A stretch of DNA of 64,000 bases from Candidatus Omnitrophota bacterium (GTDB lineage Bacteria; Omnitrophota; Gorgyraeia; Duberdicusellales; 4484-171). The position numbers and the translations under genes are program-made. The notes under the pieces were generated by a model. It worked only from the letters and a program-made list of their open reading frames with translations, made no database searches and was not told where the DNA came from. Positions 17,815 to 41,084 of the stretch are shown one piece after another (positions within the stretch are counted from its first letter, which is position 1; each line of letters opens with the position of its first letter). Location of the stretch: positions 1 through 64,000 of the forward strand of contig JAIPGM010000006.1 of the NCBI GenBank assembly GCA_021735655.1. Reading direction: 5' to 3'.

Positions 17815-19311
17815 CTAAGAACCGTACCAATAATTAACCAAAGGCTTTGCGTCTTTGGCTTTATCAATCAGAATATTTTTAAGCTGAGTATACTCTAAAA
17901 ATCCTTCTCTCCCCAGTTCTTTACCGAAACCACTTTGTTTAAATCCTCCATAAGGAAGCTGATTAAAAAACATACCATAAGTATTAACCCATACTGTCCC
18001 GGCGTTAAGTTCTTCGGCTAGACTCTTAGCTTTTGATTCATCTTTTGTCCAAATACAAGCTGCCAAAGCAAATTCTGAATTATTAGCTAACTCAACAGCC
18101 TCCCTTAGCGAAGAAAACTTAACTACGCAAACCACCGGCCCGAAAACTTCCTTCTGAAAAATAGACATCTCAGGGCTCACTTCAGCAATCACTGTCGGCT
18201 CAAAGAAAAATCCCTTTTCTAAACTAGAATTATCAGGAATCTTTCCACCACATAACACCTTAGCCCCTTGTTTCTTAGCCTCTTCAATAAAACTAATTAC
18301 CCCTTTTCTTTGACTCTCTGAAATCAATGGCCCAATTTGAGTCTCAAAATCTAAACCATCGCCTAATTTAATAGCTTTAGCTTTAATTATAAAATCATCA
18401 ACAAATTTATCATAAACTTTATCTTCAATTAAAATTCTCGACATTGCTGTGCACATCTGGCCCTGATTTAAAAATATCGAACACAATGAACCATTGACTG
18501 CTGCCTCTAAGTCACAATCAGCTAAAACTAAACTAGCTGATTTACCGCCCAGCTCCATGACTAGCTTTTTTACACTGCTTGAGGTATACTCAATAATTTT
18601 TTTACCAACTAAATTTGAACCAGTAAAAGATATCATATCAACTCGCTTATCAGAACAAAGCGCCTTGCCAACGGTCTCTCCCTTTCCGGCTAAAATATTA
18701 ACCACTCCCTTGGGTAATCCCGCCTCTTGAACTATCTTACCTAACTCTAAAGCAGTTAAAGGCGTAAGGCTCGATGGTTTTAGAATAACTGTATTACCGG
18801 CAGCTAGACTTTGAGCTAACTTCCAAGAAGCGATTATTAACGGGTAGTTCCAGGGAACAATCAACACCACCACGCCTCGCGGTTGACGAATCAGCTCGCT
18901 CTTTGCTTGGGCAATTTGAGATTGGATATCTACCGTCTCAGCTTCTAGAAACTTCTCTAAATTATTGGCAAAATAATCAAAAGTTTGAGCACTGGAAGGT
19001 ATATCCATAAAAGTTGACTCTTTGATTGGTTTCCCATTATTTTGTGTTTCTAGCTGAGCTAACTCAGCTGCTCTGTTGAGAATACCTTGTGCTATCTTTA
19101 AAATAAAACTTTTACGCTCAAGTAGTGAAAGCTTAGCCCAAGGACCTTGATCGAAGGCAATCCGAGCCGAGCTTATTGCTAGCTCAACATCAGAAGCATC
19201 AGCCAGGCTAACTGTAGCTATTGGTTCTCGATTAGCTGGATTGACTATAGTTTCTTTTGTGGCTGACTCTTTAAACTCACCATTAATAAATAAAGGATAA
19301 TTTGGTATCAT
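17815..19311 (-). CDS. NAD(P)-dependent aldehyde dehydrogenase
   Basis: ELGGKSA glutamate motif and catalytic Cys (GQMCTAMSR), 498 aa. Confidence 0.88.
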   Translation of the reverse strand: MIPNYPLFINGEFKESATKETIVNPANREPIATVSLADASDVELAISSARIAFDQGPWAKLSLLERKSFILKIAQGILNRAAELAQLETQNNGKPIKESTFMDIPSSAQTFDYFANNLEKFLEAETVDIQSQIAQAKSELIRQPRGVVVLIVPWNYPLIIASWKLAQSLAAGNTVILKPSSLTPLTALELGKIVQEAGLPKGVVNILAGKGETVGKALCSDKRVDMISFTGSNLVGKKIIEYTSSSVKKLVMELGGKSASLVLADCDLEAAVNGSLCSIFLNQGQMCTAMSRILIEDKVYDKFVDDFIIKAKAIKLGDGLDFETQIGPLISESQRKGVISFIEEAKKQGAKVLCGGKIPDNSSLEKGFFFEPTVIAEVSPEMSIFQKEVFGPVVCVVKFSSLREAVELANNSEFALAACIWTKDESKAKSLAEELNAGTVWVNTYGMFFNQLPYGGFKQSGFGKELGREGFLEYTQLKNILIDKAKDAKPLVNYWYGS

Positions 19312-20309
19312 CTAAACTTAACCTCTTTAAATAATTGAAATAAACGGGTAAACGGCACATACCATTTACTCAACTGGCCAAGTTGCCCTTCTAGCTTCAT
19401 CTTTCCTTGAGTAACTGCTACGAATGAATCTAATTTTCCCAAAAATACCTGTTGCCAAACATCAGACTCAGCCGAAATCACAAAAGGAGCATCACAGCTT
19501 GCATCTAAACTAGTAACTTTACCCTCTTTGAAGGTAAATCTATAAGCACTATCATCTTGGTTAAGCTTAATAGCTAACTGCACGGTTAAACCTAACTCCT
19601 TTCCTTTTTGAGCGATAAATTCATCCTTATTCACCAAATCGACTATCGCCTGAATATGCTCTTTAGAAAACATTGGGTAACTTATTTCATTTTTAGTAAG
19701 TGTATCTTTCAAAGACTTATCTAAATCATCTAGAATGTCCTTCTTAAATAATCTAGCTACAGCCGTAGTTCTTACCGCCTCCTCTAAAGCCTCAACTAAA
19801 CTTAAAGCATCAGAAAAATTATCACCGATTGCCACTGCTCCGTGATTTTTCAAAACTACTAAATTGTTAGTCTTTAGAGCTTCAATTACCTTTTCCGGCT
19901 TGGTGACAGTCGGAGTGTCTTGTTCGATAACCGGAACTTCCCCTAAATAAAACTTGGTTTCAAAAGTTAAAGCTTTTAGTTTTGAGCTGACTGCAAAATA
20001 ACCATTGATTAAGGGTGGATGACAATGAATAACTACCTTTTGATCAGAATTTTTATAAACCAAACTGTGCAAAGAAAGCTCTGAAGTCGGGGTTCTGTCG
20101 CTTTCAGTCCTTTGACTGGCTAAATTAACCTTAACAATATCATCATCGCCTAATTCACCGAGTGAAGTCTGAGTTGCTGTAATTAAAATATTTTCTTTAT
20201 CTAGACGACAACTTATATTCCCCGATTTAGCAACGGCTAAATCTTTTTCATAAAGTTTTTTGCCAACTTTAATAATCTCAGCTTTTAAAACTTTCTCCTG
20301 ATCGTTCAT
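19308..20309 (-). CDS. Class II aldolase/adducin-family protein (MtnB/FucA-like) fused to C-terminal SCP2-like domain
   Basis: SGNISCRLD and VIHCHPPLING aldolase_II motifs in first ~210 aa; extra ~120-aa C-terminal domain with SCP2-like pattern. Confidence 0.65.
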   Translation of the reverse strand: MNDQEKVLKAEIIKVGKKLYEKDLAVAKSGNISCRLDKENILITATQTSLGELGDDDIVKVNLASQRTESDRTPTSELSLHSLVYKNSDQKVVIHCHPPLINGYFAVSSKLKALTFETKFYLGEVPVIEQDTPTVTKPEKVIEALKTNNLVVLKNHGAVAIGDNFSDALSLVEALEEAVRTTAVARLFKKDILDDLDKSLKDTLTKNEISYPMFSKEHIQAIVDLVNKDEFIAQKGKELGLTVQLAIKLNQDDSAYRFTFKEGKVTSLDASCDAPFVISAESDVWQQVFLGKLDSFVAVTQGKMKLEGQLGQLSKWYVPFTRLFQLFKEVKFR

Positions 20310-21244
20310 TTTTTAACCTCTAAATGAATATGTTTAGTGATTAATTTATTCGGTGTAACATCAAAGGCCGGATAATAACCCCGAACCCCTTTGGGTGCGA
20401 TCGGTACCCCAGCTAACTCCAACAACTCCTTATCTGGTCTTCTCTCTATTTTTATATCTTTACCAGTTTTAGCCCTTGAGGCCGGAGGGCAAATAACATA
20501 AAAAGGAACCTTAAAATGCTTAGCTAAAATAGCAATCTGATAAGTTCCAACCTTATTAGCAATATCGCCATTTTGAGCTAAATTATCAGCCCCAACAATA
20601 ACCTTATCGATTTTCTTCTCCTGCATTACCTGAGCTACCATATTATCGGTAATTATTGTAACTTTGAATCCGGCTTGGGACAATTCCCAGGCCGTAAGTT
20701 TTGAACCCTGTAAGTATGGTCGAGTTTCAGTAACAAAAAAAGTAACTTTTTTCTTTTGTTCGGCAGCAAATTTACCAATTAGAGGCATAAGCCCGCTAAT
20801 ATTACAGTGGGTCAGAACTACATCGTTGTCTTCAACTAACTTGCTGGCCGTTTGAGCCTGAGATATGCGTTTATTCTTAAGCATCTCTAAAAAGCCGACT
20901 ATAGCCTTCTCAACCGGCACACCAGAAGTAACCCAGGCCAAAACCATATCAGTTAAAAACTTAAAAGAAAGAGTTGGCCGAGTTGAGTTAAGCGCTTTGG
21001 CAACCTTATTTAGTAAAACTAAATTCACTTTTCCTTTATTCTTCCTAATAACTAAAAGAAATGTATACATAACAAGTAAAACTTGGCCTACGGCCCGAGT
21101 TTTCATCTTTTTTATTGCCAAACAGGCCTCTTGATAAGTCTTTACTTTTATGTATTTCACCTTAAAAGGAAGTAAGGTTTCATCAAGAATATAAATAGTA
21201 TCTTTTTTTAACTGAATTGGCCAAAATAAAGGTGAATAATTCAT
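20306..21244 (-). CDS. mtnA: MtnA / eIF-2B-family sugar-1-phosphate isomerase (5-methylthioribose-1-P / 5-deoxyribose-1-P isomerase-like)
   Basis: VLTHCN, ETRPYLQGSKLTAWEL, VGADNLAQNGDIANKVGTYQIA, PAFDVTP motifs diagnostic of MtnA. Confidence 0.8.
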   Translation of the reverse strand: MNYSPLFWPIQLKKDTIYILDETLLPFKVKYIKVKTYQEACLAIKKMKTRAVGQVLLVMYTFLLVIRKNKGKVNLVLLNKVAKALNSTRPTLSFKFLTDMVLAWVTSGVPVEKAIVGFLEMLKNKRISQAQTASKLVEDNDVVLTHCNISGLMPLIGKFAAEQKKKVTFFVTETRPYLQGSKLTAWELSQAGFKVTIITDNMVAQVMQEKKIDKVIVGADNLAQNGDIANKVGTYQIAILAKHFKVPFYVICPPASRAKTGKDIKIERRPDKELLELAGVPIAPKGVRGYYPAFDVTPNKLITKHIHLEVKK

Positions 21245-22044
21245 AGTTTTTTCCTATATTCAGAAAGTATCTTTAAGGTGACTTCGCCGGGGACGCCTTT
21301 TCCTATTTTTTTATCCTCGACCTCAACTAAAGGCATCACCTCCATGAGGCTGCTAGTAACAAAAGCTTCCTCAGAAGCATGAATATCCTCTACTCTAAAT
21401 TCTTTTTCTTTTAAGATTAAGCCGAGTTCTTTAACTATATCAATAACTACTCTTCTGGTGATCCCATCGAATGCTCCATCTTCTAATCTAGGAGTGAAAA
21501 CCTCTTTATCTTTAACCAAAAATAAATTACTTCTTGAACCGCCAGCTAAAAAACACTTAGGATTTATGACTAAGGCTTCCTCTTTGCCCTTACGTTGAGC
21601 CTCTAGCCAAGAAATCCTATTTCTTAAGTAACTTATACTCTTTAACTTGGAAAGCAAATCCTTACCACATCTCCTATGGGAAGAAACTATTGCCGAAAAA
21701 CCCTTCTCATAAACCTCGGAACTATAATAGCCAAATTTATCTACATAAAGCAATACGCCAACCCCTTTTCGCTTCTTATAAACAGTTATCCGAATGTAAG
21801 CATCTTCTAATTCATTCTCTTTAAGCAAAGACTTGATTTCTGTTTCCCAATCCTTTCCTACACTTTCAATTCCGATTAAATCCAACCCTTGGTTTAATCT
21901 TGTAATGTGCTTTTTTAGAAAAGGAATATTTCCTCGATAGGCTCTGAACGGCTCAAAAAGCCCCCAGCCGAATAAAAACCCTGGCTCGAAAATTTCTGCT
22001 ACCTGGGATTTGTCAACTATGTTTCCGTTACAATAGACCTTCAT
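21241..22044 (-). CDS. Class IV (fold type IV) PLP-dependent aminotransferase
   Basis: Length 267 aa and conserved pattern of BCAT/DAAT/ADC-lyase family. Confidence 0.65.
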   Translation of the reverse strand: MKVYCNGNIVDKSQVAEIFEPGFLFGWGLFEPFRAYRGNIPFLKKHITRLNQGLDLIGIESVGKDWETEIKSLLKENELEDAYIRITVYKKRKGVGVLLYVDKFGYYSSEVYEKGFSAIVSSHRRCGKDLLSKLKSISYLRNRISWLEAQRKGKEEALVINPKCFLAGGSRSNLFLVKDKEVFTPRLEDGAFDGITRRVVIDIVKELGLILKEKEFRVEDIHASEEAFVTSSLMEVMPLVEVEDKKIGKGVPGEVTLKILSEYRKKL

Positions 22045-22937
22045 TAACCAAATATATTAAAAAAATTCTTATGGGTAATTTTTTCCTTTACCTTGCCCCC
22101 AAGCGAATCTAACATTTTCAAACTATTGTTAACATCTCCACAAACCGGATAGTCCGAACCCCAAAGAAGTCTATCTTGACCAAACAAATCAATAGCTAGT
22201 TCAATATTCTTTAAAGATCCCCCGGAAGTGTCAACATAAACATTTTTTAGAATCTCACTCGGTGACTTTCCTAAATCTTTAACAATTTCTCTTTTTCTAA
22301 GCATTGCATAGACCCGATCAAATCTATCTTTTAAAAAAGGTACAACCCCGCCTAAAGATGAAAAGATAAAATTCAACTTATACTTTTCTAAAATACCTTC
22401 AACCATCAATAAACCAAGGAATATTGAAGCATCAAAGCTATACTCTAATACCGGCATAAGCAAGGGATCTTTCACCCTTTCAAAACCAATCGGATTGATT
22501 GTCTGAGGATGCACGAAAATAGGCAAGTTGTTACTTTCAGCTGCCTCAAATAGAGGCTCAAGCTCTTTAACCAAAAATTTACCGTTGTGGCTTGAGGCAA
22601 TGCTAATCGCTCCAAAACCTCGCTGCTTTAACTCCTCAACCTGAAAAGCAACTGTTGCTAAACTTTCCGTATCAACAATGCCAGCACCAATAATTTTAGA
22701 ATTTTCCTTAGTGATTTCCTCAAGGGCAGAGTTATAAATATCACAAACTCTTGCGAAAACTTCTAATTTTAAATGAGCGTCAGTTGATGGATAGCAAAGA
22801 AGCGCTTTTTCTATATTATGTTTATCAAGATAAGCAAAAAGCGCATCCCGATCAGTCCAAACACCTTTATAAAAAGCTGTGTAAGCTGATAGCTTTTCAG
22901 GGATAAAATGAATATGAGAATCACACAAGATACTCAA
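22044..22937 (-). CDS. Amidohydrolase-2 family TIM-barrel metal-dependent hydrolase
   Basis: N-terminal CDSHIH metal-binding motif, ~300 aa. Confidence 0.6.
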   Translation of the reverse strand: MSILCDSHIHFIPEKLSAYTAFYKGVWTDRDALFAYLDKHNIEKALLCYPSTDAHLKLEVFARVCDIYNSALEEITKENSKIIGAGIVDTESLATVAFQVEELKQRGFGAISIASSHNGKFLVKELEPLFEAAESNNLPIFVHPQTINPIGFERVKDPLLMPVLEYSFDASIFLGLLMVEGILEKYKLNFIFSSLGGVVPFLKDRFDRVYAMLRKREIVKDLGKSPSEILKNVYVDTSGGSLKNIELAIDLFGQDRLLWGSDYPVCGDVNNSLKMLDSLGGKVKEKITHKNFFNIFG

Positions 22938-24394
22938 ATATGTTTTTCTCCTTTAACTGCACCTTCTTCCCACTTAGCTACGCCCTGCATAACATCCTGA
23001 AAGCATAGCTTAGCTAAAGGGTCAAAATCAGAAGTCATAATTCTCTGAATTCTTCCTGGTTTTGAGAAAAACTCTCGCATCGACCAGGCCCCAAGCCTTC
23101 CTAAATCTTCAATTGTCAAATGGTCAGTCGGTATTACCGGATGTAAAAAATCCCATTTACGAAAATCAATCTTTCGTGGATCAAACCACCCTTTCTTTAA
23201 GCCAATTCTCCACATTGGTGAATTCGGAGCCGGTGTTACATAACCAACCCAAAGAATATCCGGATCAACAGTGTCAGTAAACTCATGTCTTTGTTTAACG
23301 ATCTGTTCAGTGTCATGATCAAAGCCAATCATAATGTCCGCAACCACAGCTACATCCTGAGCTCGCAAGATATCGATTGTTTTTTTAATATGTTCAATGG
23401 TTACCCCTTTAGCAATTTTCTTTAACTCTTCCGGAGTAGTTACCTCTATTCCAAAAACTCCCATAAACAGACCAGTTTCTTTCATTAACGGTAAGATCTT
23501 TTCACAATTTACCCAGTCAATAGCTCTCCCTAAAGAAACCCACTTTATCGGATTTCCTTTTTCCTTCTTTAAATTACAGAACTTCTCCACTCGATCAGCA
23601 TCAACATTAAAGTTATCATCCTGAATTACCACGACTTTAGTCCCAAACTTATGATGCAATAACTCTAGTTCCTCAATTACCCGCTCAGGCGATTTAGCTC
23701 TCCAGGTTAAAAAATCATTAGGTGAGCGAGGATCGTACTGGTTCCACTCATAACAAAAGGTACAGGCTGAAGGACAACCTCGAGAGGTTATCATTTCAAC
23801 AAATGGTTTCCAATGAGTATGACCAACGTATTTATCCATCGGAAACAAATCATAGGCTGGCAAAGGTAAACTGTCTAAATCAGTCATTAACGGTCGGTGT
23901 GGCCCCATCTGAGGCTTGCCATCGATCCTTGACGCTGTTCCAGCTACATCTTTAGTTGAAGTACCAGCTTCAATTGTTTGAACCAAATCAAGAAAACCTT
24001 CTTCCTCAGCCATAACTACATGATCAATAGCCGGATTGTCTTCTAAGGTTTCAATCGGAGTTGCTGAATACCAAAGACCACCAACAACAACTTTAACATT
24101 CGGTAAAACCTGTTTTATCTTAGCGGCGGCTTGATTAAAATGCCAAACAACTCCAAAGCCAACCGCACAATGAATCATATCACCGAGTAAAACTAAGTCA
24201 GGATTAATATCTTTTACCTTTTCTCCCAACTGATCTAAAGCGATACCTAAAACTGTACAATCAAGCACCTGTAAATCATTATAGCCATGTTCGCGGATAT
24301 AGGCTGCCCATTGAGCATATAGTTGATTAGGAGCAAAATGCTCTCCATGAGTTGCCCAAGCGCCTACTTTTGGTGATACAAATAAAATTTTCAT
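22934..24394 (-). CDS. B12-binding-domain radical SAM protein
   Basis: N-terminal Rossmann-like B12-binding region followed by TSRGCPSACTFC Cx3Cx2C. Confidence 0.8.
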   Translation of the reverse strand: MKILFVSPKVGAWATHGEHFAPNQLYAQWAAYIREHGYNDLQVLDCTVLGIALDQLGEKVKDINPDLVLLGDMIHCAVGFGVVWHFNQAAAKIKQVLPNVKVVVGGLWYSATPIETLEDNPAIDHVVMAEEEGFLDLVQTIEAGTSTKDVAGTASRIDGKPQMGPHRPLMTDLDSLPLPAYDLFPMDKYVGHTHWKPFVEMITSRGCPSACTFCYEWNQYDPRSPNDFLTWRAKSPERVIEELELLHHKFGTKVVVIQDDNFNVDADRVEKFCNLKKEKGNPIKWVSLGRAIDWVNCEKILPLMKETGLFMGVFGIEVTTPEELKKIAKGVTIEHIKKTIDILRAQDVAVVADIMIGFDHDTEQIVKQRHEFTDTVDPDILWVGYVTPAPNSPMWRIGLKKGWFDPRKIDFRKWDFLHPVIPTDHLTIEDLGRLGAWSMREFFSKPGRIQRIMTSDFDPLAKLCFQDVMQGVAKWEEGAVKGEKHI

Positions 24395-24408: not shown

Positions 24409-25173
24409 TTATTTATCTTCTGGGTGATCTTGTTTAAAAGGAATTACTGGCTTTGTCCAAGGAGTTTGCTGGTTAATAACTGCTATCTCCAAAGGACAGA
24501 CATTTTTATCCTGTTTCAAAGCAAAAATAACAGTATTAGCTACTGCTTCTGGCTCCATTAATCTATCTTCAGCTATATCCTTTAACTTCCCAGTTAAAGG
24601 GGTTCTGGTAACTCCCGGGAAAATTGAAGTAACTTTAATTCCGAAATCACGCATCTCCCAAAAAAGCCCTTTAGCGAAAGCTCTGAGAGCTACTTTAAGC
24701 GAAGTGTAAACAATAAAATTACGCGGTGGGGGATCAACCATAACCGAACCGCTAGTTATATTAACAATATTTCCTCCACCTTGATCTTTCATCGGACCAA
24801 CGACTAACCGAGCAAGCATAACGTAACTAAAATAATTAGTATACATTATCTTTTCGATATCTTCAATTGGCTGATTCCAAAAAGGATGCTGGCTGGACAC
24901 ACCGGCTCCGTTAACTAGACAATCAACTCGGTTAAACTTAGATAAAGTCTCATTGACTAAATTCTCTAAATCAGCTTGTTTAGTAACGTCACACCTTAAG
25001 CATAAAACTTTATCCGGATTCGGCAAAGTTTTTTTAAACTCTTCCAAAACTTCTAGCCTTCTTGCCGCTAAGACTAAAGTCAAACCTTCTTTGGCCAGAC
25101 TTTCAACGATAACCTTACCAATCCCGCCGGAAGCCCCGGTAACAATACAAACTTTTCCTGTTAAATCAGACAT
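24409..25173 (-). CDS. SDR-family oxidoreductase (ketoreductase-like)
   Basis: TGASGGIGK cofactor motif and YxxxK region. Confidence 0.85.
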   Translation of the reverse strand: MSDLTGKVCIVTGASGGIGKVIVESLAKEGLTLVLAARRLEVLEEFKKTLPNPDKVLCLRCDVTKQADLENLVNETLSKFNRVDCLVNGAGVSSQHPFWNQPIEDIEKIMYTNYFSYVMLARLVVGPMKDQGGGNIVNITSGSVMVDPPPRNFIVYTSLKVALRAFAKGLFWEMRDFGIKVTSIFPGVTRTPLTGKLKDIAEDRLMEPEAVANTVIFALKQDKNVCPLEIAVINQQTPWTKPVIPFKQDHPEDK

Positions 25174-25185: not shown

Positions 25186-26340
25186 TTAATGAGACTGCCC
25201 TTTTAAGGTCTTAGTCGAATTATCCAATAATCTATTCATAAAGAATCCTAGAAAAAATAAAATTATAGTCATGATGAAAAATAAAATTTTAAAACCAATG
25301 ATTGAACTTGCTAACAAGCTACCAAAAAAAGCCCCTAGGCCACCAAAGCCTAGTCTTAAAGAACTATTTAAACTAGAAGCATCTCTTAAAATTTTATCCG
25401 GCAAATGAGCCAAGTATGCCGACAACCCGGTATGTGAAAGAGCCCAGCCAGCGCCCCAAAAAACAATGGTTAAAATTATTAACTGATATTGCCAACTGAA
25501 CAATAAAATAGCAGTAAATACACTCATCGATATATATCCTATACGAGTAATTTTAATATTCCCAAAAGTAGAGCTCAAAAACCCACCTAAAAACCTAATA
25601 ACTATCGCGCAAACTGTTGAAATAGTAAAAATCGAACTTATCGCAACTTGCCTTAAAGCAAAACGTTCACTCAAATAGACTCCCAAATTTTGTTGTAGAC
25701 CATGGAATAAAAAACTGCCCAGGCCAACTGCTAAGAAAAGACGCAAAGCTTGCTTGTCTTTAAAAGTCTCAAAATAGCTTATCTTGAACTTTTCCCCTCT
25801 AAAATCAAAATCCTCTAAATAAAGTAAAATCAAAATGAAAATAAAAAAACAAAGAACTACCGGGGTTAAATAAATCGCCCGCCAAGGTAAAAAACCGCTC
25901 AAGAAAACTCCCAAGCAAGCTGAAACCGTAGAAAGAGCAAAAAATGTCCCTAAGTGCTTAGCCTTTTTGTCTGAATCTACGGCCTTCCCAATCGTAATAA
26001 AAGCTAGAGGTACGAAACCTGAACCAAAACAACCCATCATAAATCGAAACAAAAATGCCTGGTTTATACTCTGGGAAACACTAAAAAGCAAAGTCGAAAC
26101 ACTAAAGCCTATGATTGATATAAGCAAAAGATTTTTTACAGTAACGCTTCTCGATAGAGGCCCCCAGAAAAAAGCAAAGATGCCATAAGGAAGCATATAA
26201 ATCCAGGTAAGCCGGACAGCTATGTTTTTAGCAACCCCAAAATATTCAGCAATCGTTGGAACCAAAGCTGCTGTAGCTGATAAGCTAAAAGCAATAGCAA
26301 TAAAAATCAAACAAAAAATTAAAAAACTTCCTTTAGGCAT
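25186..26340 (-). CDS. MFS transporter
   Basis: 12 predicted TM helices, 384 aa. Confidence 0.7.
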   Translation of the reverse strand: MPKGSFLIFCLIFIAIAFSLSATAALVPTIAEYFGVAKNIAVRLTWIYMLPYGIFAFFWGPLSRSVTVKNLLLISIIGFSVSTLLFSVSQSINQAFLFRFMMGCFGSGFVPLAFITIGKAVDSDKKAKHLGTFFALSTVSACLGVFLSGFLPWRAIYLTPVVLCFFIFILILLYLEDFDFRGEKFKISYFETFKDKQALRLFLAVGLGSFLFHGLQQNLGVYLSERFALRQVAISSIFTISTVCAIVIRFLGGFLSSTFGNIKITRIGYISMSVFTAILLFSWQYQLIILTIVFWGAGWALSHTGLSAYLAHLPDKILRDASSLNSSLRLGFGGLGAFFGSLLASSIIGFKILFFIMTIILFFLGFFMNRLLDNSTKTLKGQSH

Positions 26341-26768
26341 TATTCCTTCTCAATTATCTCCTTAAATATCTTCATATTTGAAAGAGAATGATCATTGATC
26401 ATTTTTTCAGCTTGCTCATCATTAAATTTTGCGCCAGCAGCCATTTTAAAATCTTGGATCCAAGTCATCTCAGTCCCACCTTCAACCTCACGATACAACC
26501 AAATAATCTTCATAAATTCAAACGGGGCCATTGGCTCAACCCGAGATGCATAAGCAAATTTATCTTCTTTAAATAAAAGTCGGTAAGACTCCCAACTGCG
26601 GCCATTTTCATGGGTAAGCTTAAAAACTATCTTGTTTCCGGAAGTTTCTAAAACATCGCTTTCAACATATTCCTTAAAAAACTCTTTCCAACGTGAAATA
26701 TCATTGCTCATATCAAAAACCTTATCGTAAGTTGCCTTAATCACTACTGAATTTCTAGTGTGTGCCAT
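26340..26768 (-). CDS. SRPBCC-superfamily protein (polyketide cyclase/aromatase-like or lipid-binding)
   Basis: 142 aa, Bet v1-like pattern; context next to KS/CLF/ACP. Confidence 0.5.
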   Translation of the reverse strand: MAHTRNSVVIKATYDKVFDMSNDISRWKEFFKEYVESDVLETSGNKIVFKLTHENGRSWESYRLLFKEDKFAYASRVEPMAPFEFMKIIWLYREVEGGTEMTWIQDFKMAAGAKFNDEQAEKMINDHSLSNMKIFKEIIEKE

Positions 26769-26912: not shown

Positions 26913-27716
26913 TTAATTATCAACCATAGCTACCACTCTCGCCCAGGCAGCTCCGGTTTTTCTTATTCTAACTGGAAAACAAATTACTTTGAAACCAAAA
27001 TCAGGTAACTTATCTAAATTGGCTAATCTTTCTATATGAATGAATTCACGTTTTCTTCCATAAAAATGGGTTGGCCAAAGCTTCTTTGGATCTTTTAACT
27101 CTTGAAACTCTTTAATCATAAACTTATAAGGCCGATCAATACCCATAGTATCAACACCGAAAATATTCACTTGCCTTTCAAGCAAATAGTCAATAACCGA
27201 TACATCTATCCCGGGATAATCAGAAAAATACTCTTTTTTGCCAAACAACTTATCCGAACCAGTATGCAATAAAACAATATCTAAAGGTTTTAATGAATAG
27301 TTAATCTTTTTTAGGCCGGCGTCTATATCTTGAGCAGTAATAACCTCTTCTGGTTTCTTATGCGTTAAATCGATTTTTACTCCCTGCTGGTAACACCAGT
27401 CTAAAGGTATTTCATCGGCAGTTTTTGAAGGGCGCCCCTGGGACTTACTACCATAATGATAAGAATAATCGAGATGTGTCCCACTGTGGACCGATGAATA
27501 AACCATCTCTAAAGATAAAAACTCTTCATCGGGCAAGTCTTCTTTTTTAATCATTCGCTCACCCTGTTCATAGCGAGCTTTACTTTCCGAATCACGCGAC
27601 ATCAAAACCTTATTTAACTTCTCAACCCCTTCACTGTGAGAAGTGCGCTCAATTCTTAAAGGATGTACTTCAAAGGCTTGGTCATCTATCGGCAGGCTCA
27701 AATCAACTATTTTCAT
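26913..27716 (-). CDS. Cyclase-family protein (kynurenine formamidase-like, PF04199)
   Basis: HSGTHLDYSYHYG resembling the HxGTHxDxPxH metal motif of the cyclase family. Confidence 0.65.
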   Translation of the reverse strand: MKIVDLSLPIDDQAFEVHPLRIERTSHSEGVEKLNKVLMSRDSESKARYEQGERMIKKEDLPDEEFLSLEMVYSSVHSGTHLDYSYHYGSKSQGRPSKTADEIPLDWCYQQGVKIDLTHKKPEEVITAQDIDAGLKKINYSLKPLDIVLLHTGSDKLFGKKEYFSDYPGIDVSVIDYLLERQVNIFGVDTMGIDRPYKFMIKEFQELKDPKKLWPTHFYGRKREFIHIERLANLDKLPDFGFKVICFPVRIRKTGAAWARVVAMVDN

Positions 27717-27731: not shown

Positions 27732-27965
27732 TTACTGCTTTTTTTTAGAAATTGTTTCGGTTATCTCTAAGGGAGTGGAAAACTTTGTAACCTCATCGGC
27801 CTCAAGATTAACTTGAAAGTTTTTCTTTAAGGCCACTACCAATTCCACTACTTCGGTTGAATCTACACCGATCGAATCATACATTTTCTGATCTTCTTTT
27901 AATTCCTCTTTACCAATATCTAATGTTTTACAAATAAGCTCAATTACCTCTTCTTTTAGCGCCAT
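27732..27965 (-). CDS. Acyl carrier protein
   Basis: 77 aa, acidic four-helix pattern with DSIGVDSTEVVEL phosphopantetheine-attachment-like site. Confidence 0.7.
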   Translation of the reverse strand: MALKEEVIELICKTLDIGKEELKEDQKMYDSIGVDSTEVVELVVALKKNFQVNLEADEVTKFSTPLEITETISKKKQ

Positions 27966-27980: not shown

Positions 27981-29213
27981 TTATTCTTTCTCAATTGCTA
28001 AAACAACATTTATTCCGCCACGACCTCTGGCCAAGATAAGAGCTTTCTTAACCTCAGCTTCCCTAGATTTATTCGGAGTATAATCTAAATCGCAGCAAGG
28101 ATCTTTCATTTCATAGTTAATGGTCGGTAGGATGGTTGAACTTTTCATCGAAAAAAGTGTCGAAATTAAATCTAAAGCTGTTTGAGCGCCCAATAAATTG
28201 CCATACATACTTTTAGGAGCACTTAAAGCAATATCTTTTATCCTTGTGCCGAATACATTCTTTAAGCTTCTGGTTTCAAGATAATCACCAAGTTCAGAAG
28301 CCTCAGCGTCTAAGCAAATATAATCAACCGCATCTTTTTTCCAACCAGCATCTTTGAGACATTCTTCTATCGCATACTCAAAATTACTTGAGTCGGGCCG
28401 GTAGCGTGAATAATGGTATCCATCAGAAGAAAACCCGATACCTTTTATAAACCCATACACCGGTACCCCTCTTTTTTTGGCTTGTGATTCCCTCTCTAGA
28501 AGCACAGTGCCTGATCCTTCGGCAATTACAAAACCGTCTCGATATAAATCGTAAGGTCGGTAGGCTTTTTTAAAGTTAAGGTTATTCTTTGATAAACCAC
28601 CCCGAGAATTAGCACATAAAAGTGCGTAGGGGCTAATCGGGGCTTCCATACCCCCAGCTACAACATAATCGTTTTTACCTTGGGCTACGGTTTTTGCCCC
28701 ATACCACAAAGCTAAGGCTGATGAAGCCTTGTCAGCGACTATGGTCTTACTATACCCTTTAAATCCGTAATAAATAGTAACTTGTCCTTGAGGGGCTGCC
28801 GGAAACCAGGCACTAGCCATATAAGGCGAAATACCTTCTCTTCCTTCAATATACATATCACGTAATTCGGTTTCAGCAAAAAGCCAGCCACCTAAAGCAT
28901 TACCCATAAAAACGCCAACTTTATTTTTATCAATATTATCTAAATCAATTTTTGAATCTTTAAGTGCCTGCTCACAAGAAACAAGAGCCATATGAGAAAA
29001 AACATCGATCTTTTTTACTAAGCGACCGGAAAGATGAGTATAGTGATCAAGCTCATGAACTTGACCGGCAATTCGTGAAGGATAACCGGAAGAATCAAAA
29101 CGGTTTACTTCATCGATAAACGATCCGCCTCGCTTAAGGTTAGCCCAAAAAGTTTCTTTCTTCAATCCACAAGGTGAAACTACACCAATACCAGTTATTG
29201 CTATTCTTTCCAT
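27981..29213 (-). CDS. Ketosynthase-like protein lacking catalytic Cys/His/His (chain-length-factor / KS-beta-like)
   Basis: Thiolase fold; active-site positions read ...DKASSAL... (no Cys), DAEAS instead of NAHGT, SMYGN instead of SMxGH. Confidence 0.75.
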   Translation of the reverse strand: MERIAITGIGVVSPCGLKKETFWANLKRGGSFIDEVNRFDSSGYPSRIAGQVHELDHYTHLSGRLVKKIDVFSHMALVSCEQALKDSKIDLDNIDKNKVGVFMGNALGGWLFAETELRDMYIEGREGISPYMASAWFPAAPQGQVTIYYGFKGYSKTIVADKASSALALWYGAKTVAQGKNDYVVAGGMEAPISPYALLCANSRGGLSKNNLNFKKAYRPYDLYRDGFVIAEGSGTVLLERESQAKKRGVPVYGFIKGIGFSSDGYHYSRYRPDSSNFEYAIEECLKDAGWKKDAVDYICLDAEASELGDYLETRSLKNVFGTRIKDIALSAPKSMYGNLLGAQTALDLISTLFSMKSSTILPTINYEMKDPCCDLDYTPNKSREAEVKKALILARGRGGINVVLAIEKE

Positions 29214-29216: not shown

Positions 29217-30467
29217 TTAAGCCTCCCACCGTTTGAATACAATTGATGAATGTATTCCTGAAAATCCACTGCTTGTTTTTAATATGTAATTAGGCATAAG
29301 TTTTCGTTTTTTATTAGGAATATAGTCTAGATCGCACTTTGGATCTTGTTCTTCCTGATTAATGGTTGGCGGGAGATAACCACCTTTAAAAATCATACAG
29401 CAAAGTACAGCTTCAGCAGCATTAGCTGCAGCTAAAGGATGACCAATCATTGACTTTATCGAACTAATCGGAATTTTATAAGCTAAGTCACCAAAAACTT
29501 GCTTATAGGCATCCGTCTCAAAAGTATCGTTCTGCCTGGTGCTTGAACCGTGGGCATTAATATAACCTATCTCTTCCTTCTTAATCCCTGCCTCTTTAAT
29601 TGCCTCCTCCATACAGCGAGCCATTGGCTCACCGCTAGCCGGTAGATCAGTCATATGATAAGCATTGCAACTTGTGCCATAACCTAAAACTTCCGCATAA
29701 ATTGGAGCCCCGCGCTTTTTAGCATGCTCAAGCTCCTCCATAATTACAATTCCCGCTGCCTCAGAAATTACAAAGCCATTTCGCTTATTATCAAAAGGAC
29801 GCGAGGCCTTATGTGGCTCATCATTATTTTTAGCTAAAACATTTACCACGTCAAAAGCACCAAAGGTAATCGGAGTAACCGGAGCCTCACTTGCCCCGGC
29901 AATAATAAATTCCTGCCTGCCCTCACGAATAAGCTCATAGGCAAAGCCTATCGAATCGCTTCCTGCGGTACAACCAGTTGAAACCGTACAGTTCATACCT
30001 TGAGTTCCATAAACTGCTCCCACCTCAGCGCTGGGACTATTAAACATAGCTGCATCATAAAGATAAGGTCGACCTTTTCTTGGATCAATTGGTTTTTTAC
30101 CCCACTCGGTAACTAATAAAAACTCCTCTTCCATGAAGCGGGTTCCGCAAATTGCATTAGCTAAAACTACACCACAGCGACGGCGGTCAACGCTTTCAAA
30201 GTCAATTTTTGAATCGCTAACTGCCTGTTTAGCCGCGGCAACTGCAAATTGAACATACCTATCCATACGCTTATGCTCAGCGATTCCATAGTTCAAAGGA
30301 TCGAACCCTAAAACCTGAGAAGCAATCTTTGAAACAAAAATACTAACATCAAAATTTTCAACTAGCTCAACGGAAGACCTACCTTCAATAAGGTTATTAT
30401 AAAACTCATGTTTATCTTCGCCAGCTCCCGAAATTATCCCAACTCCAGTAATAACTACTCTTCTCAT
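29217..30467 (-). CDS. Beta-ketoacyl-ACP synthase (FabF-like, active KS-alpha)
   Basis: STGCTAGS active-site Cys, NAHGSST and IGHPLAAA His motifs. Confidence 0.88.
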   Translation of the reverse strand: MRRVVITGVGIISGAGEDKHEFYNNLIEGRSSVELVENFDVSIFVSKIASQVLGFDPLNYGIAEHKRMDRYVQFAVAAAKQAVSDSKIDFESVDRRRCGVVLANAICGTRFMEEEFLLVTEWGKKPIDPRKGRPYLYDAAMFNSPSAEVGAVYGTQGMNCTVSTGCTAGSDSIGFAYELIREGRQEFIIAGASEAPVTPITFGAFDVVNVLAKNNDEPHKASRPFDNKRNGFVISEAAGIVIMEELEHAKKRGAPIYAEVLGYGTSCNAYHMTDLPASGEPMARCMEEAIKEAGIKKEEIGYINAHGSSTRQNDTFETDAYKQVFGDLAYKIPISSIKSMIGHPLAAANAAEAVLCCMIFKGGYLPPTINQEEQDPKCDLDYIPNKKRKLMPNYILKTSSGFSGIHSSIVFKRWEA

Positions 30468-30480: not shown

Positions 30481-31104
30481 TTAATCTTTTCGGGTAATCT
30501 TAAAAATAATATTTCCACCATCAGGACAAGTTACTGTATCAATAGAATTATGATCCTTCATGAAGAAAAATTTAGCTCCAAAATTAAGAGCAAAAAGAGC
30601 CGGAAAGGCGACATGCCAGGCTGCCCCACAAAATCCATCAATACACTTTAAACCTTTTACCTGCCACTTATCACCCAGCTTATATTTATAAGAACATTTA
30701 CCTTTAGCTTTAACAACTTCAATCTCCATGTTTTTAGGATTAGGTCCTTTGTGGTTAGGGTCTTTAGGAATAAATTTAACTTTGTCATTCTTGTCTAATA
30801 GCTCAACTAAAAATTCGGCCTTTCCACCATCAGGGCAAGTAACTTTTAGAGATTTCTGATTATCCATAAAGCCAAACCGGGCGCCAAAACTTAGAGCATA
30901 AGCAACCGGAAAAAGTGCATGGGCTAAACCTAAACAAAAATGTTTAGGCGGATGGGTAAAATCTCCCAAAATAAACTCATCGTTAACTTCGTAACCATGA
31001 TAACACTCTCCATAAACTCCAATACAAGTTAACTTCAACCTAGGAAAAGGAGTATTGATATCGGCACAGTTAGCCTTGCAATATTCATCTTTACAATTTT
31101 TCAT
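30481..31104 (-). CDS. Tandem-duplicated Cys/His-rich small-domain protein (TIGR04076-like, tentative)
   Basis: Two internal repeats each with FC.G.AHA.FP...AL.FGA.F.FM......VTCPDGG. Confidence 0.45.
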   Translation of the reverse strand: MKNCKDEYCKANCADINTPFPRLKLTCIGVYGECYHGYEVNDEFILGDFTHPPKHFCLGLAHALFPVAYALSFGARFGFMDNQKSLKVTCPDGGKAEFLVELLDKNDKVKFIPKDPNHKGPNPKNMEIEVVKAKGKCSYKYKLGDKWQVKGLKCIDGFCGAAWHVAFPALFALNFGAKFFFMKDHNSIDTVTCPDGGNIIFKITRKD

Positions 31105-31137: not shown

Positions 31138-32142
31138 TTAAGAATTAATCGAATTTATTTCTCTCAACAACTCTTCTTTAGATAAAAATCTACCAGTCTC
31201 CTCTAAATTATGCACTAGCTCAACTATTTTTTGATTAAGCTTAGCCGGCTCACAGTTAGCTATAGCCTGATGTATGATTTCTCCGTTAATATAGTCAATT
31301 TCTGATTTTTTCCCACGCTTTATGGATTGTAAAATTGAACCATATAAAGGTTCTTTGCTTAAATTAGTCATAATTTTTGAGAATAGACCAGCTGCTTCAT
31401 CTAAAGGCATCTTAACTAAGCCTTCAATTCTCTCCTTGGGATAAGTTAAAAGACTGGCTAATTCTATATTAGCCTTGGTTATAATTTCATAGGCTTCTTT
31501 GTTCAGCTTAATTGCCAAGCGGGCTAAGTCTATATCAACAAATGCCTCCTGCATCGAAACTCCCAGAATAGCCGGAATGCAATTATTTAAATTTACAAAT
31601 AACTTAAGATACTTAGCACCTTTTATATTATCTGAACTAACTACGTTGAAGGCTGGTTTAAGTAGATTAACGACTTCTTCGTATTTTTCTACTTTAGTAT
31701 TATATATATTTCCTAATACGAGTTCACCTTCAAAATTATGGATAACCTTATCCGGTGAGTAAAAAGTTGCCCCAAACATAACAATCCCGCTCAGTATTTT
31801 ATTTTCGGGGATAAAACTATTAACAATATGATCGGCCTGTATTCCATTTTGAGTAGTTAGAGCTAAAGAATTTTTCAAAAATTCAAAATTGTCGTTGATA
31901 ATTGCTTCAAGATCATTAACCTTGGTTGCAAAAATGGCTAAGTCTACCCTTTCAGTTAACTTTGTATCAACCTTAACTTCTTGCTTATGACTACCGCGGA
32001 CACCCTCTAAGCTCAGGCCTTCTTTTAGTAATAAACCTTTCTGATGATCACGAACAACGCCGACTACATCATGGCCATCTTTAGCAAGATAACCTAAAAA
32101 TAATCCGCCAATTGCTCCGCAACCTAATACTGCTATTTTCAT
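31138..32142 (-). CDS. Ketopantoate reductase (ApbA/PanE) family NAD(P)-dependent oxidoreductase
   Basis: MKIAVLGCGAIGG Rossmann motif, length 334 aa. Confidence 0.75.
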   Translation of the reverse strand: MKIAVLGCGAIGGLFLGYLAKDGHDVVGVVRDHQKGLLLKEGLSLEGVRGSHKQEVKVDTKLTERVDLAIFATKVNDLEAIINDNFEFLKNSLALTTQNGIQADHIVNSFIPENKILSGIVMFGATFYSPDKVIHNFEGELVLGNIYNTKVEKYEEVVNLLKPAFNVVSSDNIKGAKYLKLFVNLNNCIPAILGVSMQEAFVDIDLARLAIKLNKEAYEIITKANIELASLLTYPKERIEGLVKMPLDEAAGLFSKIMTNLSKEPLYGSILQSIKRGKKSEIDYINGEIIHQAIANCEPAKLNQKIVELVHNLEETGRFLSKEELLREINSINS

Positions 32143-32151: not shown

Positions 32152-32412
32152 CTACTCTTTTATATATTTCGAATATTCAATGCCCTGCTGGCTAAAAAGT
32201 CTTTTCATCATATCTTTAAAGGCCGGGGGCACTTCTTTAAAAAAAGCGATAACCACATCTTGGTCTTCTACGGCCTCAGAGTTTCTTTTGGTAGCTAGTT
32301 CTTCAGCGCTTTCTTTAACTAGTTGCTCAGCTATTGAGCGATGAAATTGGGGAAGATTTTCAATTACCTTATCAAAATGTTCTTTTGCTTTATCGGACCA
32401 CTTAATATCCAT
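32152..32412 (-). CDS. Small PCP_red-like domain protein
   Basis: IKWSDKAKEHFDKVIENLPQFHRSIAEQLVKESAEELA matches W-S/T-x-E-A...IP-x-F-x-R pattern of standalone PCP_red (PF08369) proteins. Confidence 0.45.
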   Translation of the reverse strand: MDIKWSDKAKEHFDKVIENLPQFHRSIAEQLVKESAEELATKRNSEAVEDQDVVIAFFKEVPPAFKDMMKRLFSQQGIEYSKYIKE

Positions 32413-32421: not shown

Positions 32422-33156
32422 CTACAGTTTATCAATTGCCTCAAAGGCTAAATCAGTCATCTTCATTTCAGCCCCGAAAAAACGATAATCACTAAATCCC
32501 ATCTGGCCGGTTATGAGATTGTCCGACACTACACAAATTGCCGCAGCCCGTTTATTATTAAGGTTAGCAACCGTTACAAAGGGTGAAGTTACCATGTCTA
32601 CGGCAATCGCTCCTTTCTCAATATAGGGGTTAACAATTTCTTTGGTCTCACGAAAGATAGCGTCGGTAGTCCAAATCCCTCCTCGGTGAACAGATCCGGC
32701 CCCGGAAAAAGAATTCTCTAAAATGTCGGTTACCTCATTGTCTACCTTAGGTTTATAATCGTCATCAACATAATAACGAGTTGTTCCATCTCCACGCAAA
32801 ACATCGGTCACTAAAACATAATCCCCGATATTAATGTCCTGACGTAGAGCCCCACAAGAACCCAATCTAATAAATGTCTTAACCCCTCCGGCACAAAGTA
32901 TCTCAGTAGCTAGGGCTGAGTCAGGAGCGTAAAATCCTCCATTACCGACAGTAATTTTTCTCCCCTTATAAAGCCCGGTCCAAAAGGTATAAGCTAAAAA
33001 AGTAAAGTTCTTGACTGGATTTTCTAATTTCTTTAGACACATTTGAGCCCGATGTTGTTGACCGCTTACTAAAACAATATCACCAAAATCACCCGGCTTA
33101 AACTGCAAAGAAGCTAAAAGCCCCTTAGGATCCATATGAACATCTCTCTGCATCAT
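32422..33156 (-). CDS. PNP/UDP-family nucleoside phosphorylase (putative 5'-deoxyadenosine/MTA phosphorylase or futalosine-hydrolase-like)
   Basis: RLGSCGAL phosphate-binding motif and VDMVTSPF (E-M-E-x-A-like) region. Confidence 0.7.
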   Translation of the reverse strand: MMQRDVHMDPKGLLASLQFKPGDFGDIVLVSGQQHRAQMCLKKLENPVKNFTFLAYTFWTGLYKGRKITVGNGGFYAPDSALATEILCAGGVKTFIRLGSCGALRQDINIGDYVLVTDVLRGDGTTRYYVDDDYKPKVDNEVTDILENSFSGAGSVHRGGIWTTDAIFRETKEIVNPYIEKGAIAVDMVTSPFVTVANLNNKRAAAICVVSDNLITGQMGFSDYRFFGAEMKMTDLAFEAIDKL

Positions 33157-33158: not shown

Positions 33159-34631
33159 CTATACTCCTCGATTAATTAGTTTTGTTTTATCTATCTTTCC
33201 GGTTCTATTTTTAGGTAACTCTTTTACAAATTCAAAATAATGCGGCATTTTAAAATGAGCTAAGCTCTGTTTTAAAAAATCTTTTAACTCTGAATCATCT
33301 AAATTTTCCCCGTCTTTAGCAACAATGAAAGCTTTTGGAACTTCTCCACGTAGTTTATCACCCACACCAATAACAGCCGCCTCTTTTACTTTGGGACATT
33401 GGCTTATTTTTTCTTCGACTTCAGCCGGAAAAACAATCTCACCAGCTACCTTAATCATATCTTTTTTTCGCCCAACAATATAATAAAGGCCTTGGCTGTC
33501 AAACGATGCAATATCTCCAGTTCTAAACCAGCCATCTTCGGTTAGGGCTTCTTTAGTTAAATCTGGCTCTCTAAAATACCCCTTAGTCACAGCTTTACCT
33601 TTAACCATTAGTTCCCCTTTCTTATCAAGCCCGAGAGACTTACCTTCAGGATCAACAATCTTTACTTCTAAGTCAGAGGTAAAATTACCAATGCTTCTTA
33701 TCTTATCATCGCCGGGCGGTGAAATAGTATTGGGAGCGGCGGTTTCGGTCATCCCCCAACCATTGGCTAATTGAGCATTAGGATAAGCCCTATGAAAACG
33801 CTTGAGTAGGGCTGGTGAAGATGGCGCACCGAAAACAACTGCATAACGCAGAGAAGAAAAATCAAAACCCTGGTATTCTTTCAAAGATAAAATAGCCATA
33901 AACATTGCCGGAACAATACAAAAAATAGTTACCTTATGTTCTTGAATATTCTTTAAAAACTCAAAAGGATGAAAGCGTGGCATCAAAACTAACTTACAAG
34001 AAAAATAAAGCATCAATAATATGTAATCTAAGCCACCGACATGAGAAAAAGGAACTCCGCCGCATAAAAATACATCACCGGAAGAAACGCTTAAAAACTG
34101 ATCAATAACCTTTGGTGGGTTACCGAGTTGTGAATAGTTAAGCATTACCCCTTTGGGATGACCAGTTGAACCAGAAGTATAAAATATTGCTGCTAGGTCG
34201 CTTTCAGAAATATCTAAAGATATCTCATCGGTCTTCTCAAAGCTTAATTCAGTAACTATTTCACCTAAGTCAGGACAACTGCTTTTAATTTTATCTAAAT
34301 CAACTCCCTTTCTAGGCTGGATAATTAATAGTTTAGCCTGACTATGATTAAGAAAGTTTATAACTTCCTCTTCAGTAAGCATATAGTCTAAAGGCACAAC
34401 GCAGGCTCCAAGACAAAATACTCCTAAAAAACTATAGATAGTTTCCGGAATATTAGGAAGGAAAAGGGCCACCTTATCATCTTTGCCAATACCCTTAATT
34501 TGCAAATAATTACTAACCCCCAAAGCCATAGCTTTAACCTCTGAGAAAGAAATACTCCTTCCTTCAAAGATAATAGCTGATTTATCCGAACAATTTTGGG
34601 CGTGCTTTTTAAGTAAATCCTGAATATGCAT
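33159..34631 (-). CDS. AMP-dependent synthetase/ligase (fatty acyl-AMP/CoA ligase)
   Basis: YTSGSTGHPKGV AMP-binding motif, 490 aa; first gene of minus-strand operon. Confidence 0.85.
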   Translation of the reverse strand: MHIQDLLKKHAQNCSDKSAIIFEGRSISFSEVKAMALGVSNYLQIKGIGKDDKVALFLPNIPETIYSFLGVFCLGACVVPLDYMLTEEEVINFLNHSQAKLLIIQPRKGVDLDKIKSSCPDLGEIVTELSFEKTDEISLDISESDLAAIFYTSGSTGHPKGVMLNYSQLGNPPKVIDQFLSVSSGDVFLCGGVPFSHVGGLDYILLMLYFSCKLVLMPRFHPFEFLKNIQEHKVTIFCIVPAMFMAILSLKEYQGFDFSSLRYAVVFGAPSSPALLKRFHRAYPNAQLANGWGMTETAAPNTISPPGDDKIRSIGNFTSDLEVKIVDPEGKSLGLDKKGELMVKGKAVTKGYFREPDLTKEALTEDGWFRTGDIASFDSQGLYYIVGRKKDMIKVAGEIVFPAEVEEKISQCPKVKEAAVIGVGDKLRGEVPKAFIVAKDGENLDDSELKDFLKQSLAHFKMPHYFEFVKELPKNRTGKIDKTKLINRGV

Positions 34632-37699: not shown

Positions 37700-37879
37700 G
37701 ACTTTTCTTTCTTTGCCATAAATCCAATGATATACATAATATACATTTCCTGATATTATAGATAAATTACATAATTAAAGCAACATTTTTCTTCCAAAAT
37801 CATTAAAAACATGCTAAAATTTTACTATATATATCAATAAAATATAAAAACATATATTATGCATATTAATTGTTAGATG
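37700..37879 (+). other. attI region with GTTAGAT core site (recombination point G37872|TT)
   Basis: aattGTTAGATgtaaaat immediately upstream of first cassette ORF; AT-rich. Confidence 0.65.
37713..37741 (+). promoter_or_regulatory. Candidate cassette promoter Pc (TTGCCA-17-ATAATA)
   Basis: TTGCCA 37713-37718 and ATAAT(A) 37736-37741 oriented toward cassette array, located at intI 5' end/attI as in known integrons. Confidence 0.5.
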
Positions 37880-37905
37880 TAAAATAAAATGATAAAAGGA
37901 GAAAA

Positions 37906-39189: not shown

Positions 39190-39203
39190 ATATTAAATTA
39201 CCC

Positions 39204-39278: not shown

Positions 39279-39284
39279 TAAAAA

Positions 39285-40109: not shown

Positions 40110-40122
40110 GAAAATTAATAAA

Positions 40123-40195: not shown

Positions 40196-40222
40196 ATAAA
40201 AAAATAGAAAATAAGGAGAAAA

Positions 40223-41077: not shown

Positions 41078-41084
41078 TAAAAAT

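Follow-up and report, generated by a model that had tools for sequence, protein, structure and literature searches.

A tandem TIGR04076 protein is a conserved, physically linked member of the type II polyketide synthase operon of Omnitrophota

Type II polyketide synthases (PKSs) are defined by three proteins, the ketosynthase KS-alpha, the chain-length factor (CLF, or KS-beta) and the acyl carrier protein (ACP); to our knowledge, little has been established about how strict anaerobes prime, oxidize and tailor aromatic polyketides when oxygen-dependent enzymes are not an option. Type II PKSs of anaerobes and Gram-negative bacteria, among them the dendrubin (den), clostrubin (clr) and AQ-256 (ant) clusters, have been described as having an 'ancestral' KS-CLF-ACP-TcmN-OxyN architecture (PMC7693217), and Candidatus Omnitrophica is one of the phyla for which a catalogue of CLFs records KS-CLF pairs (PMC10132072). 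We analyzed a stretch of 64,000 nucleotides from the genome of a Candidatus Omnitrophota bacterium (contig JAIPGM010000006.1, positions 1 to 64,000; hereafter the window), which encodes a type II PKS operon of this kind. Between the genes for an ApbA-type reductase and KS-alpha, this operon carries a gene for a 207-aa protein composed of two TIGR04076 domains, a protein on which the CLF catalogue is silent (PMC10132072).

Akin to the ancestral-type clusters, the operon of the window encodes a KS-alpha with its catalytic triad, a CLF lacking the active-site Cys, an ACP, TcmN-type and OxyN-type cyclases and an SDR ketoreductase. The description of those clusters differs in that it makes no mention of a TIGR04076 protein, an ApbA-type reductase, a B12-binding radical SAM enzyme or the set of PNP, IF-2B and aldolase genes (PMC7693217). 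TIGR04076 is a named NCBIfam/TIGRFAMs family (at JGI, 'uncharacterized repeat protein, TIGR04076 family') without an assigned function, Pfam model or solved structure. The literature that we found mentions it briefly, never in connection with PKSs, and offers guesses such as 'iron cluster metabolism' or 'fimbriae-associated'; our literature search found no paper linking Omnitrophota with a ketosynthase. The family itself was already known; its link to PKSs appears to be unreported, and what is new here is that a type II PKS has an additional subunit, highly conserved and uncharacterized.

The gene is a single open reading frame (ORF) on the minus strand, with its ATG at 31104 and its stop codon at 30481-30483; a plus-strand reading of the same interval was rejected, as it contains stops throughout. 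An AAGGAG ribosome-binding site lies 5' of the ATG, and the TAA stop sits within the TAAGGAG ribosome-binding site of the next gene, that of KS-alpha. A previous reading of this stretch, made from the sequence alone (the sequence-only reading), had described the product as two repeats and had tentatively assigned it to TIGR04076, and both proposals were correct. Residues 19-104 and 121-207 form repeats of ~88 aa that are 33% identical over 88 aa (E 2e-14, in one single comparison), and the NCBIfam profile, which has 91 positions, matches both halves of the protein (90.9 bits against a cutoff of 33, E 5.7e-26, two matched stretches), the two domains accounting for the whole protein. Of the motifs proposed for the repeats, A-L-x-F-G-A-x-F-x-F-M and V-T-C-P-D-G-G indeed occur in both halves, but C-x-G-x-A-H/W-x-x-F-P fits repeat 1 only: repeat 1 reads C57 LGLAH ALFP and repeat 2 reads C159 GAAWH VAFP, so that the true common feature is C-x4-H-x2-F-P.

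Homologues of the window protein numbered 743, with the top 120 at 71-90% identity and, where a source was named, from Omnitrophota. For an alignment at the level of the domain, we searched 1.84 billion cluster representatives and collected 176 relatives at E up to 0.001; among the representatives with a domain match, the domain was present once in 99, twice in 35, three times in 6 and four times in 11. Across the 191 domain copies aligned, which came from proteins in clusters less than 50% identical to one another, each of three cysteines is conserved at 99%. The first occurs as G-x-C after strand 1, the second as P-x-G-x-C-x-x-A at the N-terminus of the helix, and the third as C-P-D after strand 3; the Pro of C-P is conserved at 93% and that of F-P at 90%. 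The His five residues past the second Cys, in contrast, is conserved at 42%, with Asp or Asn in most of the other copies. All six cysteines are invariant in tandem relatives as divergent as 45% identity, and H62, H164 and C154 are not.

The conserved signature is a Cys triad and not the Cys/His site that had been proposed. The profile match and the conservation of the cysteines in homologues were both found, whereas the His positions do not hold as a family-wide signature and the N-terminal Cys pairs, also put forward as a feature, are absent from most orthologues. With the TIGR04076 family at large the window protein shares the domain length of ~90 aa, the three invariant cysteines and the repetition of the domain (one to four repeats). 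The tandem clade of Omnitrophota differs from the rest of the family in the fixed position that it occupies within a type II PKS cluster and in the extra, clade-conserved H36, H51 and H62 of repeat 1; C154 and H164 of repeat 2 are conserved in the near clade only. The near relatives of the window protein further differ in an additional N-terminal extension, in which C4, C9 and C13 lie in the stretch MKNCKDEYCKANC; most orthologues begin near residue 15, and this Cys-rich stretch is confined to the closest relatives.

Comparisons with other families yielded little. A Pfam scan of the window protein gave sub-threshold noise only, the same scan of 50 diverse TIGR04076 members at E up to 10 gave nothing recurrent, and sequence searches of the PDB, with the single sequence and with a profile, gave chance-level matches only (TRIM25, ASH2). 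An AlphaFold2 model built from 121 orthologues is compact and two-domain (pLDDT 90.6, pTM 0.88), with a strand-strand-helix-strand-strand arrangement in each domain and pLDDT values of 65-72 in the N-terminal extension, and modelling one domain by itself, from 100 distant single-domain relatives, gave a consistent result (pLDDT 87). The idea that the two repeats form a pseudo-dimer fits this confident model. A Foldseek comparison of the tandem model with the PDB returned nothing below E 0.4.

The model does bear a fold resemblance, not significant in Foldseek and not amounting to membership, to the XdhC/CoxI molybdenum-cofactor chaperones (PDB 2we7, 3on5). XdhC carries one highly conserved Cys of debated role, either as a ligand of the cofactor or as a persulfide carrier (PMC2997495), as compared with three in TIGR04076. 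PF02625 (XdhC/CoxI) matched neither the window protein nor any of the 50 family members at E up to 10. The 207 aa are wholly taken up by the two TIGR04076 domains, with no XdhC_C Rossmann-like domain, and there are no genes for molybdenum hydroxylases or other molybdenum-cofactor enzymes among the annotated neighbors in the cluster. The suggestion that the protein serves as a substrate carrier found no direct support: it shows no PP-binding (PF00550) or other carrier signature, the cluster encodes a separate ACP, and in a protein that joins TIGR04076 to an ACP (P0166, see below) the ACP is a distinct C-terminal domain.

A scan of one genome per GTDB species identified a relative in 272 genomes, of which the best 80 loci were retrieved, and gene order was compared across 86 loci. 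The order 86-aa protein, ApbA, tandem TIGR04076, KS-alpha and CLF was kept wherever the contig was long enough. At their fixed positions, KS was present in 84 of the 86 loci, ApbA in 83 and the 86-aa protein in 80, and in both loci without KS the contig ends within a few hundred bases after the TIGR04076 gene. Between the stop codon of ApbA and the start codon of TIGR04076 the distance is 1 nt in 29 loci, and another 14 show a 4-nt overlap. The location given in the sequence-only reading, between a KS and a reductase inside a radical SAM-containing operon, is accurate for the window (Table 1). When the cluster proteins were ranked by identity to their window counterparts in the 37 loci that carry all twelve core genes, the tandem TIGR04076 protein was the most conserved of all, ranking first in 23 of these loci (mean identities are given in Table 1). 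The closest homologues with a phylum-level name occur in metagenome-assembled genomes (MAGs) of Omnitrophota, at 71-92% identity, and more divergent metagenome copies (52-63% identity) retain the same cluster. The tandem TIGR04076 protein is an integral part of an Omnitrophota-wide type II PKS operon, closely flanked on both sides and coupled in translation to ApbA. This phylum-wide conservation hints that the product belongs to the core physiology of Omnitrophota, of which we know of no member grown in pure culture, rather than being an occasional antibiotic.

Phylum-named sources among the best 80 loci were all Omnitrophota, except for one contig in a Methanosarcinales bin. This contig (L079; JAIWAR010000044.1, labelled as a Methanosarcinales archaeon MAG) carries an Omnitrophota-type cluster at 72-82% identity, and its archaeal label is probably a binning artefact. 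Alternatively, it could stem from Omnitrophota cells attached to methanogens, which are reportedly the prey of an Omnitrophota species. The same caution about binning may apply to published 'archaeal' KS-CLF hits (PMC10132072).

Gene fusions tie the domain physically to the PKS proteins. In 7 species-representative genomes, ApbA and the tandem TIGR04076 protein form one in-frame ORF, as in L075 (8996..10642, 548 aa), where both parts were confirmed by their profiles, and an independent fusion of the same kind was found in a protein library (P0126). In a Bacillota MAG (L097), a single TIGR04076 domain forms the N-terminus of an ACP (P0166), which occupies the ACP slot of a KS-CLF-ACP-cyclase-SRPBCC cluster, and a second, free-standing TIGR04076 gene lies directly before that of KASIII; this cluster also holds Amidohydro_2, DUF362 and DUF169 genes. 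No candidates emerged when the N-terminal 90 residues of the TIGR04076-ACP fusion were searched for homologues. Together, the invariant synteny, the ApbA fusions and the ACP fusion strongly support the partner role in the operon that had been suggested for this protein, and we consider firm both its identity as a tandem TIGR04076 protein and its physical link to the PKS, via ApbA and, in another phylum, via ACP. The cluster link and the fusions provide the first concrete functional anchor for TIGR04076, with ApbA, KS-CLF and ACP as defined partners.

Other members of the family recur beside redox and radical enzymes. In one protein (P0264), three TIGR04076 repeats are fused with DUF362 and a 2x[4Fe-4S] ferredoxin domain; DUF362 shares its Pfam clan with the LarA 2-hydroxyacid racemases (PMC11770544). 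In one lineage a single-domain gene occurs immediately after the gene of an HdrD-like Fer4/CCG protein, and a copy in Bilophila lies two genes from the glycyl-radical activase IslB. At locus L099, a tandem gene directly follows those for E1-alpha and E1-beta (2-oxoacid dehydrogenase-type, thiamine pyrophosphate-dependent), in a cluster with eight radical SAM genes. All named sources that we saw are anaerobes or MAGs of lineages known mainly from anoxic habitats (Omnitrophota, Dehalococcoidia, Bacillota MAGs, Methanobrevibacter and Bilophila).

Our tentative preference, to which we give a little less than an even chance, is that the protein is a metal-binding adaptor or redox subunit of an anaerobic minimal PKS. 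A metal centre in each domain, most likely an Fe-S cluster, is suggested by the three cysteines far apart in the sequence, the C-P motif, the anaerobic or anoxic sources and the Fe-S-rich partners. That the protein is more conserved than KS and occurs fused to either of two partners speaks for an accessory subunit in contact with several core proteins of the PKS. In such a mechanism the Cys triad of each domain, perhaps with the semi-conserved His/Asp five residues past the second Cys or with the Asp of C-P-D, would hold the metal centre, which would most likely be an oxygen-sensitive Fe-S cluster. The two domains would pack as a compact pseudo-dimer, and this accessory subunit would dock both on the ApbA reductase and on the KS/CLF-ACP machinery. 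It would probably provide redox or substrate-anchoring support for steps that are performed by oxygen-dependent or stand-alone enzymes in aerobic type II PKS pathways. The conserved subunit suggests a missing piece of oxygen-free aromatic polyketide synthesis, and suggests that genome-mining rules for PKSs of anaerobes should include TIGR04076.

Several observations weigh against a metal-binding or redox subunit of the PKS. Fer4- and Fer2-type profiles matched neither the window protein nor the 50 TIGR04076 members, leaving no likeness to known Fe-S or Zn families, and homology to IscU, suspected from the C-G-x-A helix-cap motif, was rejected (hhalign probability 0.4%, E 0.13, with an approximate IscU query sequence). 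ApbA/PanE enzymes are flavin-free and transfer hydride, which makes a simple relay of single electrons from ApbA to an Fe-S centre chemically awkward. No ApbA gene and no radical SAM gene lies within 10 kb in the Bacillota cluster; the function of TIGR04076 thus needs neither, and the two phyla share as its partners the condensing enzymes, the ACP, both cyclases and Amidohydro_2. Single-domain copies in Dehalococcoidia and others mostly sit among housekeeping genes, so that the family is not PKS-specific and its role in the PKS may be a local recruitment, and a 53%-identical tandem copy in another Omnitrophota genome adjoins no PKS gene.

A further proposal, which we rate as unlikely, is that TIGR04076 is a fourth 'minimal' component of type II PKSs in strict anaerobes: an Fe-S or thiol module that would dock on the ACP and the condensing enzymes and, together with enzymes of 2-oxo and 2-hydroxy acids (ApbA, DUF362, E1), would prime or redox-tailor aromatic polyketides without oxygen. 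If true, TIGR04076 would be a portable cofactor- or acyl-handling domain of anaerobes, with a status comparable to that of ACP or lipoyl domains.

Much of the same evidence could be accommodated by a purely structural adaptor, in which three Cys and a His/Asp would bind zinc and the protein, having no redox role, would scaffold the ApbA reductase, KS-CLF and ACP. DUF35 OB-fold/zinc-ribbon proteins act in this manner, scaffolding archaeal thiolase/HMG-CoA synthase, and they are, like TIGR04076 proteins, small, Cys-rich, highly conserved and encoded beside condensing enzymes; TIGR04076 copies precede KS-alpha in Omnitrophota and KASIII in Bacillota, although their fold and Cys pattern differ from those of DUF35. 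Proteins that bind several partners are typically conserved to such a degree, here beyond the catalytic KS, and the fusions to two different partners, the presence of a copy beside each condensing enzyme in L097 and the lack of likeness to known catalytic folds are likewise in line with a scaffold. However, a plain zinc module leaves unexplained the anaerobic or anoxic sources and the recurring Fe-S and redox neighbors, and the C-P motif is more typical of Fe-S ligands. We regard a redox-free zinc scaffold as unlikely, though it fares best among the alternatives.

Slightly less probable is a small ferredoxin-like carrier dedicated to the B12 radical SAM enzyme of the cluster, supplying electrons for its [4Fe-4S] cluster and cobalamin. 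Across the Omnitrophota clusters the radical SAM gene is conserved along with the TIGR04076 gene, and in one clade it directly follows CLF; the tandem gene among eight radical SAM genes, the Bilophila copy near IslB, the fusion to DUF362 plus ferredoxin and the HdrD-like neighbor would all fit such a carrier. Yet the gene is always found at ApbA and KS and not at the radical SAM gene, the fusions seen join it to ApbA and to ACP and never to a radical SAM enzyme, and the Bacillota PKS cluster has two TIGR04076 domains with no radical SAM gene in that 10-kb range. It was because of this cluster and the fusions that we down-weighted the carrier, as we did the notion of a chance neighbor considered below.

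We hold it for more doubtful again that the protein is a thiol-based acyl relay or small enzyme, in which a Cys thioester would carry a starter or intermediate from the AMP-ligase or ApbA product to the ACP or KS, or a lipoyl-like redox Cys pair would accept the acyl group. The fusion to ACP and the position directly before KS-alpha and before KASIII would suit an acyl relay, as would the gene directly after E1-alpha and E1-beta, where the E2 lipoyl acceptor normally comes. Moreover, the partners ApbA, E1 and DUF362 are all tied to 2-oxo or 2-hydroxy acid chemistry, and the HdrD-like neighbor is a protein of the disulfide-reductase type. Nevertheless, three sequence-distant invariant cysteines better fit a metal site than a single nucleophile or a CxxC-type pair, there was no match to a known acyltransferase or thioesterase fold, and each of these context associations comes from one or few loci. 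Finally, that the protein has no polyketide role, being a housekeeping protein of anaerobes that happens to sit in the operon, would agree with the single-domain relatives and the one tandem relative outside any PKS context, but is very improbable given the invariant position in every Omnitrophota locus that is long enough, with KS adjacent in 84/86, the translational coupling on both sides and the in-frame fusions to ApbA and a PKS ACP in two phyla.

Table 1. Position in the window, supporting evidence and conservation of the tandem TIGR04076 gene and the genes around it. Mean identity is to the window protein, over the 37 complete loci.
Feature	Position	Strand	Evidence or remark	Mean identity
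Tandem TIGR04076 protein, 207 aa	30481..31104	-	ORF, translation, TIGR04076 profile	77%
N-terminal extension, residues 1-18 (C4, C9, C13)	31051..31104	-	closest relatives only	
TIGR04076 repeat 1, residues 19-107 (invariant C34, C57, C90)	30784..31050	-	hmmsearch domain boundaries	
TIGR04076 repeat 2, residues 119-207 (invariant C137, C159, C193)	30484..30750	-		
ApbA/PanE-family NAD(P)H reductase, upstream neighbor	31138..32142	-	Pfam ApbA and ApbA_C; TIGR00745 at 147.8 bits	54%
86-aa DUF2621-like protein, upstream of ApbA	32152..32412	-	PF11084 at 29.9 bits	
PNP_UDP_1 phosphorylase/nucleosidase	32422..33156	-	upstream, conserved in 39 loci	
AMP-forming ligase	33159..34631	-	upstream, conserved in 28 loci	
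KS-alpha	29217..30467	-	Pfam ketoacyl-synt N and C domains; alignment	71%
CLF (KS-beta)	27981..29213	-	Pfam; alignment	66%
ACP	27732..27965	-	PP-binding; DS motif	52%
PF04199 'cyclase' (OxyN-type)	26913..27716	-	Pfam	71%
SRPBCC polyketide cyclase/aromatase (TcmN-type)	26340..26768	-	PF10604/PF03364	
MFS transporter	25186..26340	-	Pfam	
SDR ketoreductase	24409..25173	-	Pfam	
B12-binding radical SAM enzyme	22934..24394	-	Pfam; best profile match BchE, below model cutoff	73% (second most conserved)
Amidohydro_2 family protein	22044..22937	-	also in Bacillota cluster	
Class IV aminotransferase, IF-2B/MtnA-like isomerase, class II aldolase and SCP2, aldehyde dehydrogenase	17815..22044	-		

KS-alpha has a complete Cys-His-His triad (in STGCTAG, YHMTD and AHGSST). 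In the CLF, a Lys takes the place of the active-site Cys (VADKASSA) and the second His is missing; the CLFs of actinomycetes have a Gln at that position, which is credited with decarboxylative priming, and the Lys may reflect a different priming mechanism. For the radical SAM enzyme, the match to BchE lies far below the model cutoff, and the distant relatives in the PDB are AprD4 and TokK. BchE is the anaerobic oxidative cyclase of chlorophyll synthesis, and by analogy the BchE-like enzyme might replace the oxygen-dependent tailoring of an aromatic polyketide. The 86-aa protein, with a weak match to DUF2621 and a sub-threshold match to PCP_red, is another uncharacterized fixed member of the cluster.

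The PNP_UDP_1, IF-2B (MtnA-like), aldolase-SCP2 and aldehyde dehydrogenase genes (17815-21244 and 32422-33156 in the window) accompany the PKS even in a divergent cluster (L103, 17-4278). This set resembles a dihydroxyacetone phosphate-shunt-type salvage of 5'-deoxyadenosine or methylthioadenosine, and it could recycle the by-product of the radical SAM enzyme or supply acetaldehyde or acetate to the pathway.

Further genes were seen beside family members elsewhere. In the Bacillota locus L097, CMD, DUF362 and DUF169 genes lie in a row (12256-14378), the last two belonging to families without an assigned function. Of the eight radical SAM genes of L099 (1-16540), six have a SPASM match and two a B12-binding match, and epimerase, AICARFT-like and methyltransferase genes are also present; the locus itself appears to be an unusual biosynthetic cluster. 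In three Dehalococcoidia-type loci (L087, L092 and L095, at ~4850-6270 in each), the single-domain TIGR04076 gene is transcribed divergently from a gene of the NMO family (PF03060) that adjoins the one for seryl-tRNA synthetase. FabK, an enoyl-ACP reductase, is a member of the NMO family, and through this divergent NMO/FabK-like neighbor TIGR04076 may have a second connection with acyl-ACP chemistry.

In one close relative (L001, 1-6257), the cluster is immediately preceded by a giant ORF of >2,500 aa that runs off the locus. In the window (35881-45378), a tyrosine-recombinase (phage integrase family) gene and a nitroreductase gene are found at the upstream end of the operon. Beyond these, the coding strand and the GC skew switch for ~8 kb, a stretch that holds a plus-strand gene for a MORN-repeat protein and others and that may be an inserted segment.

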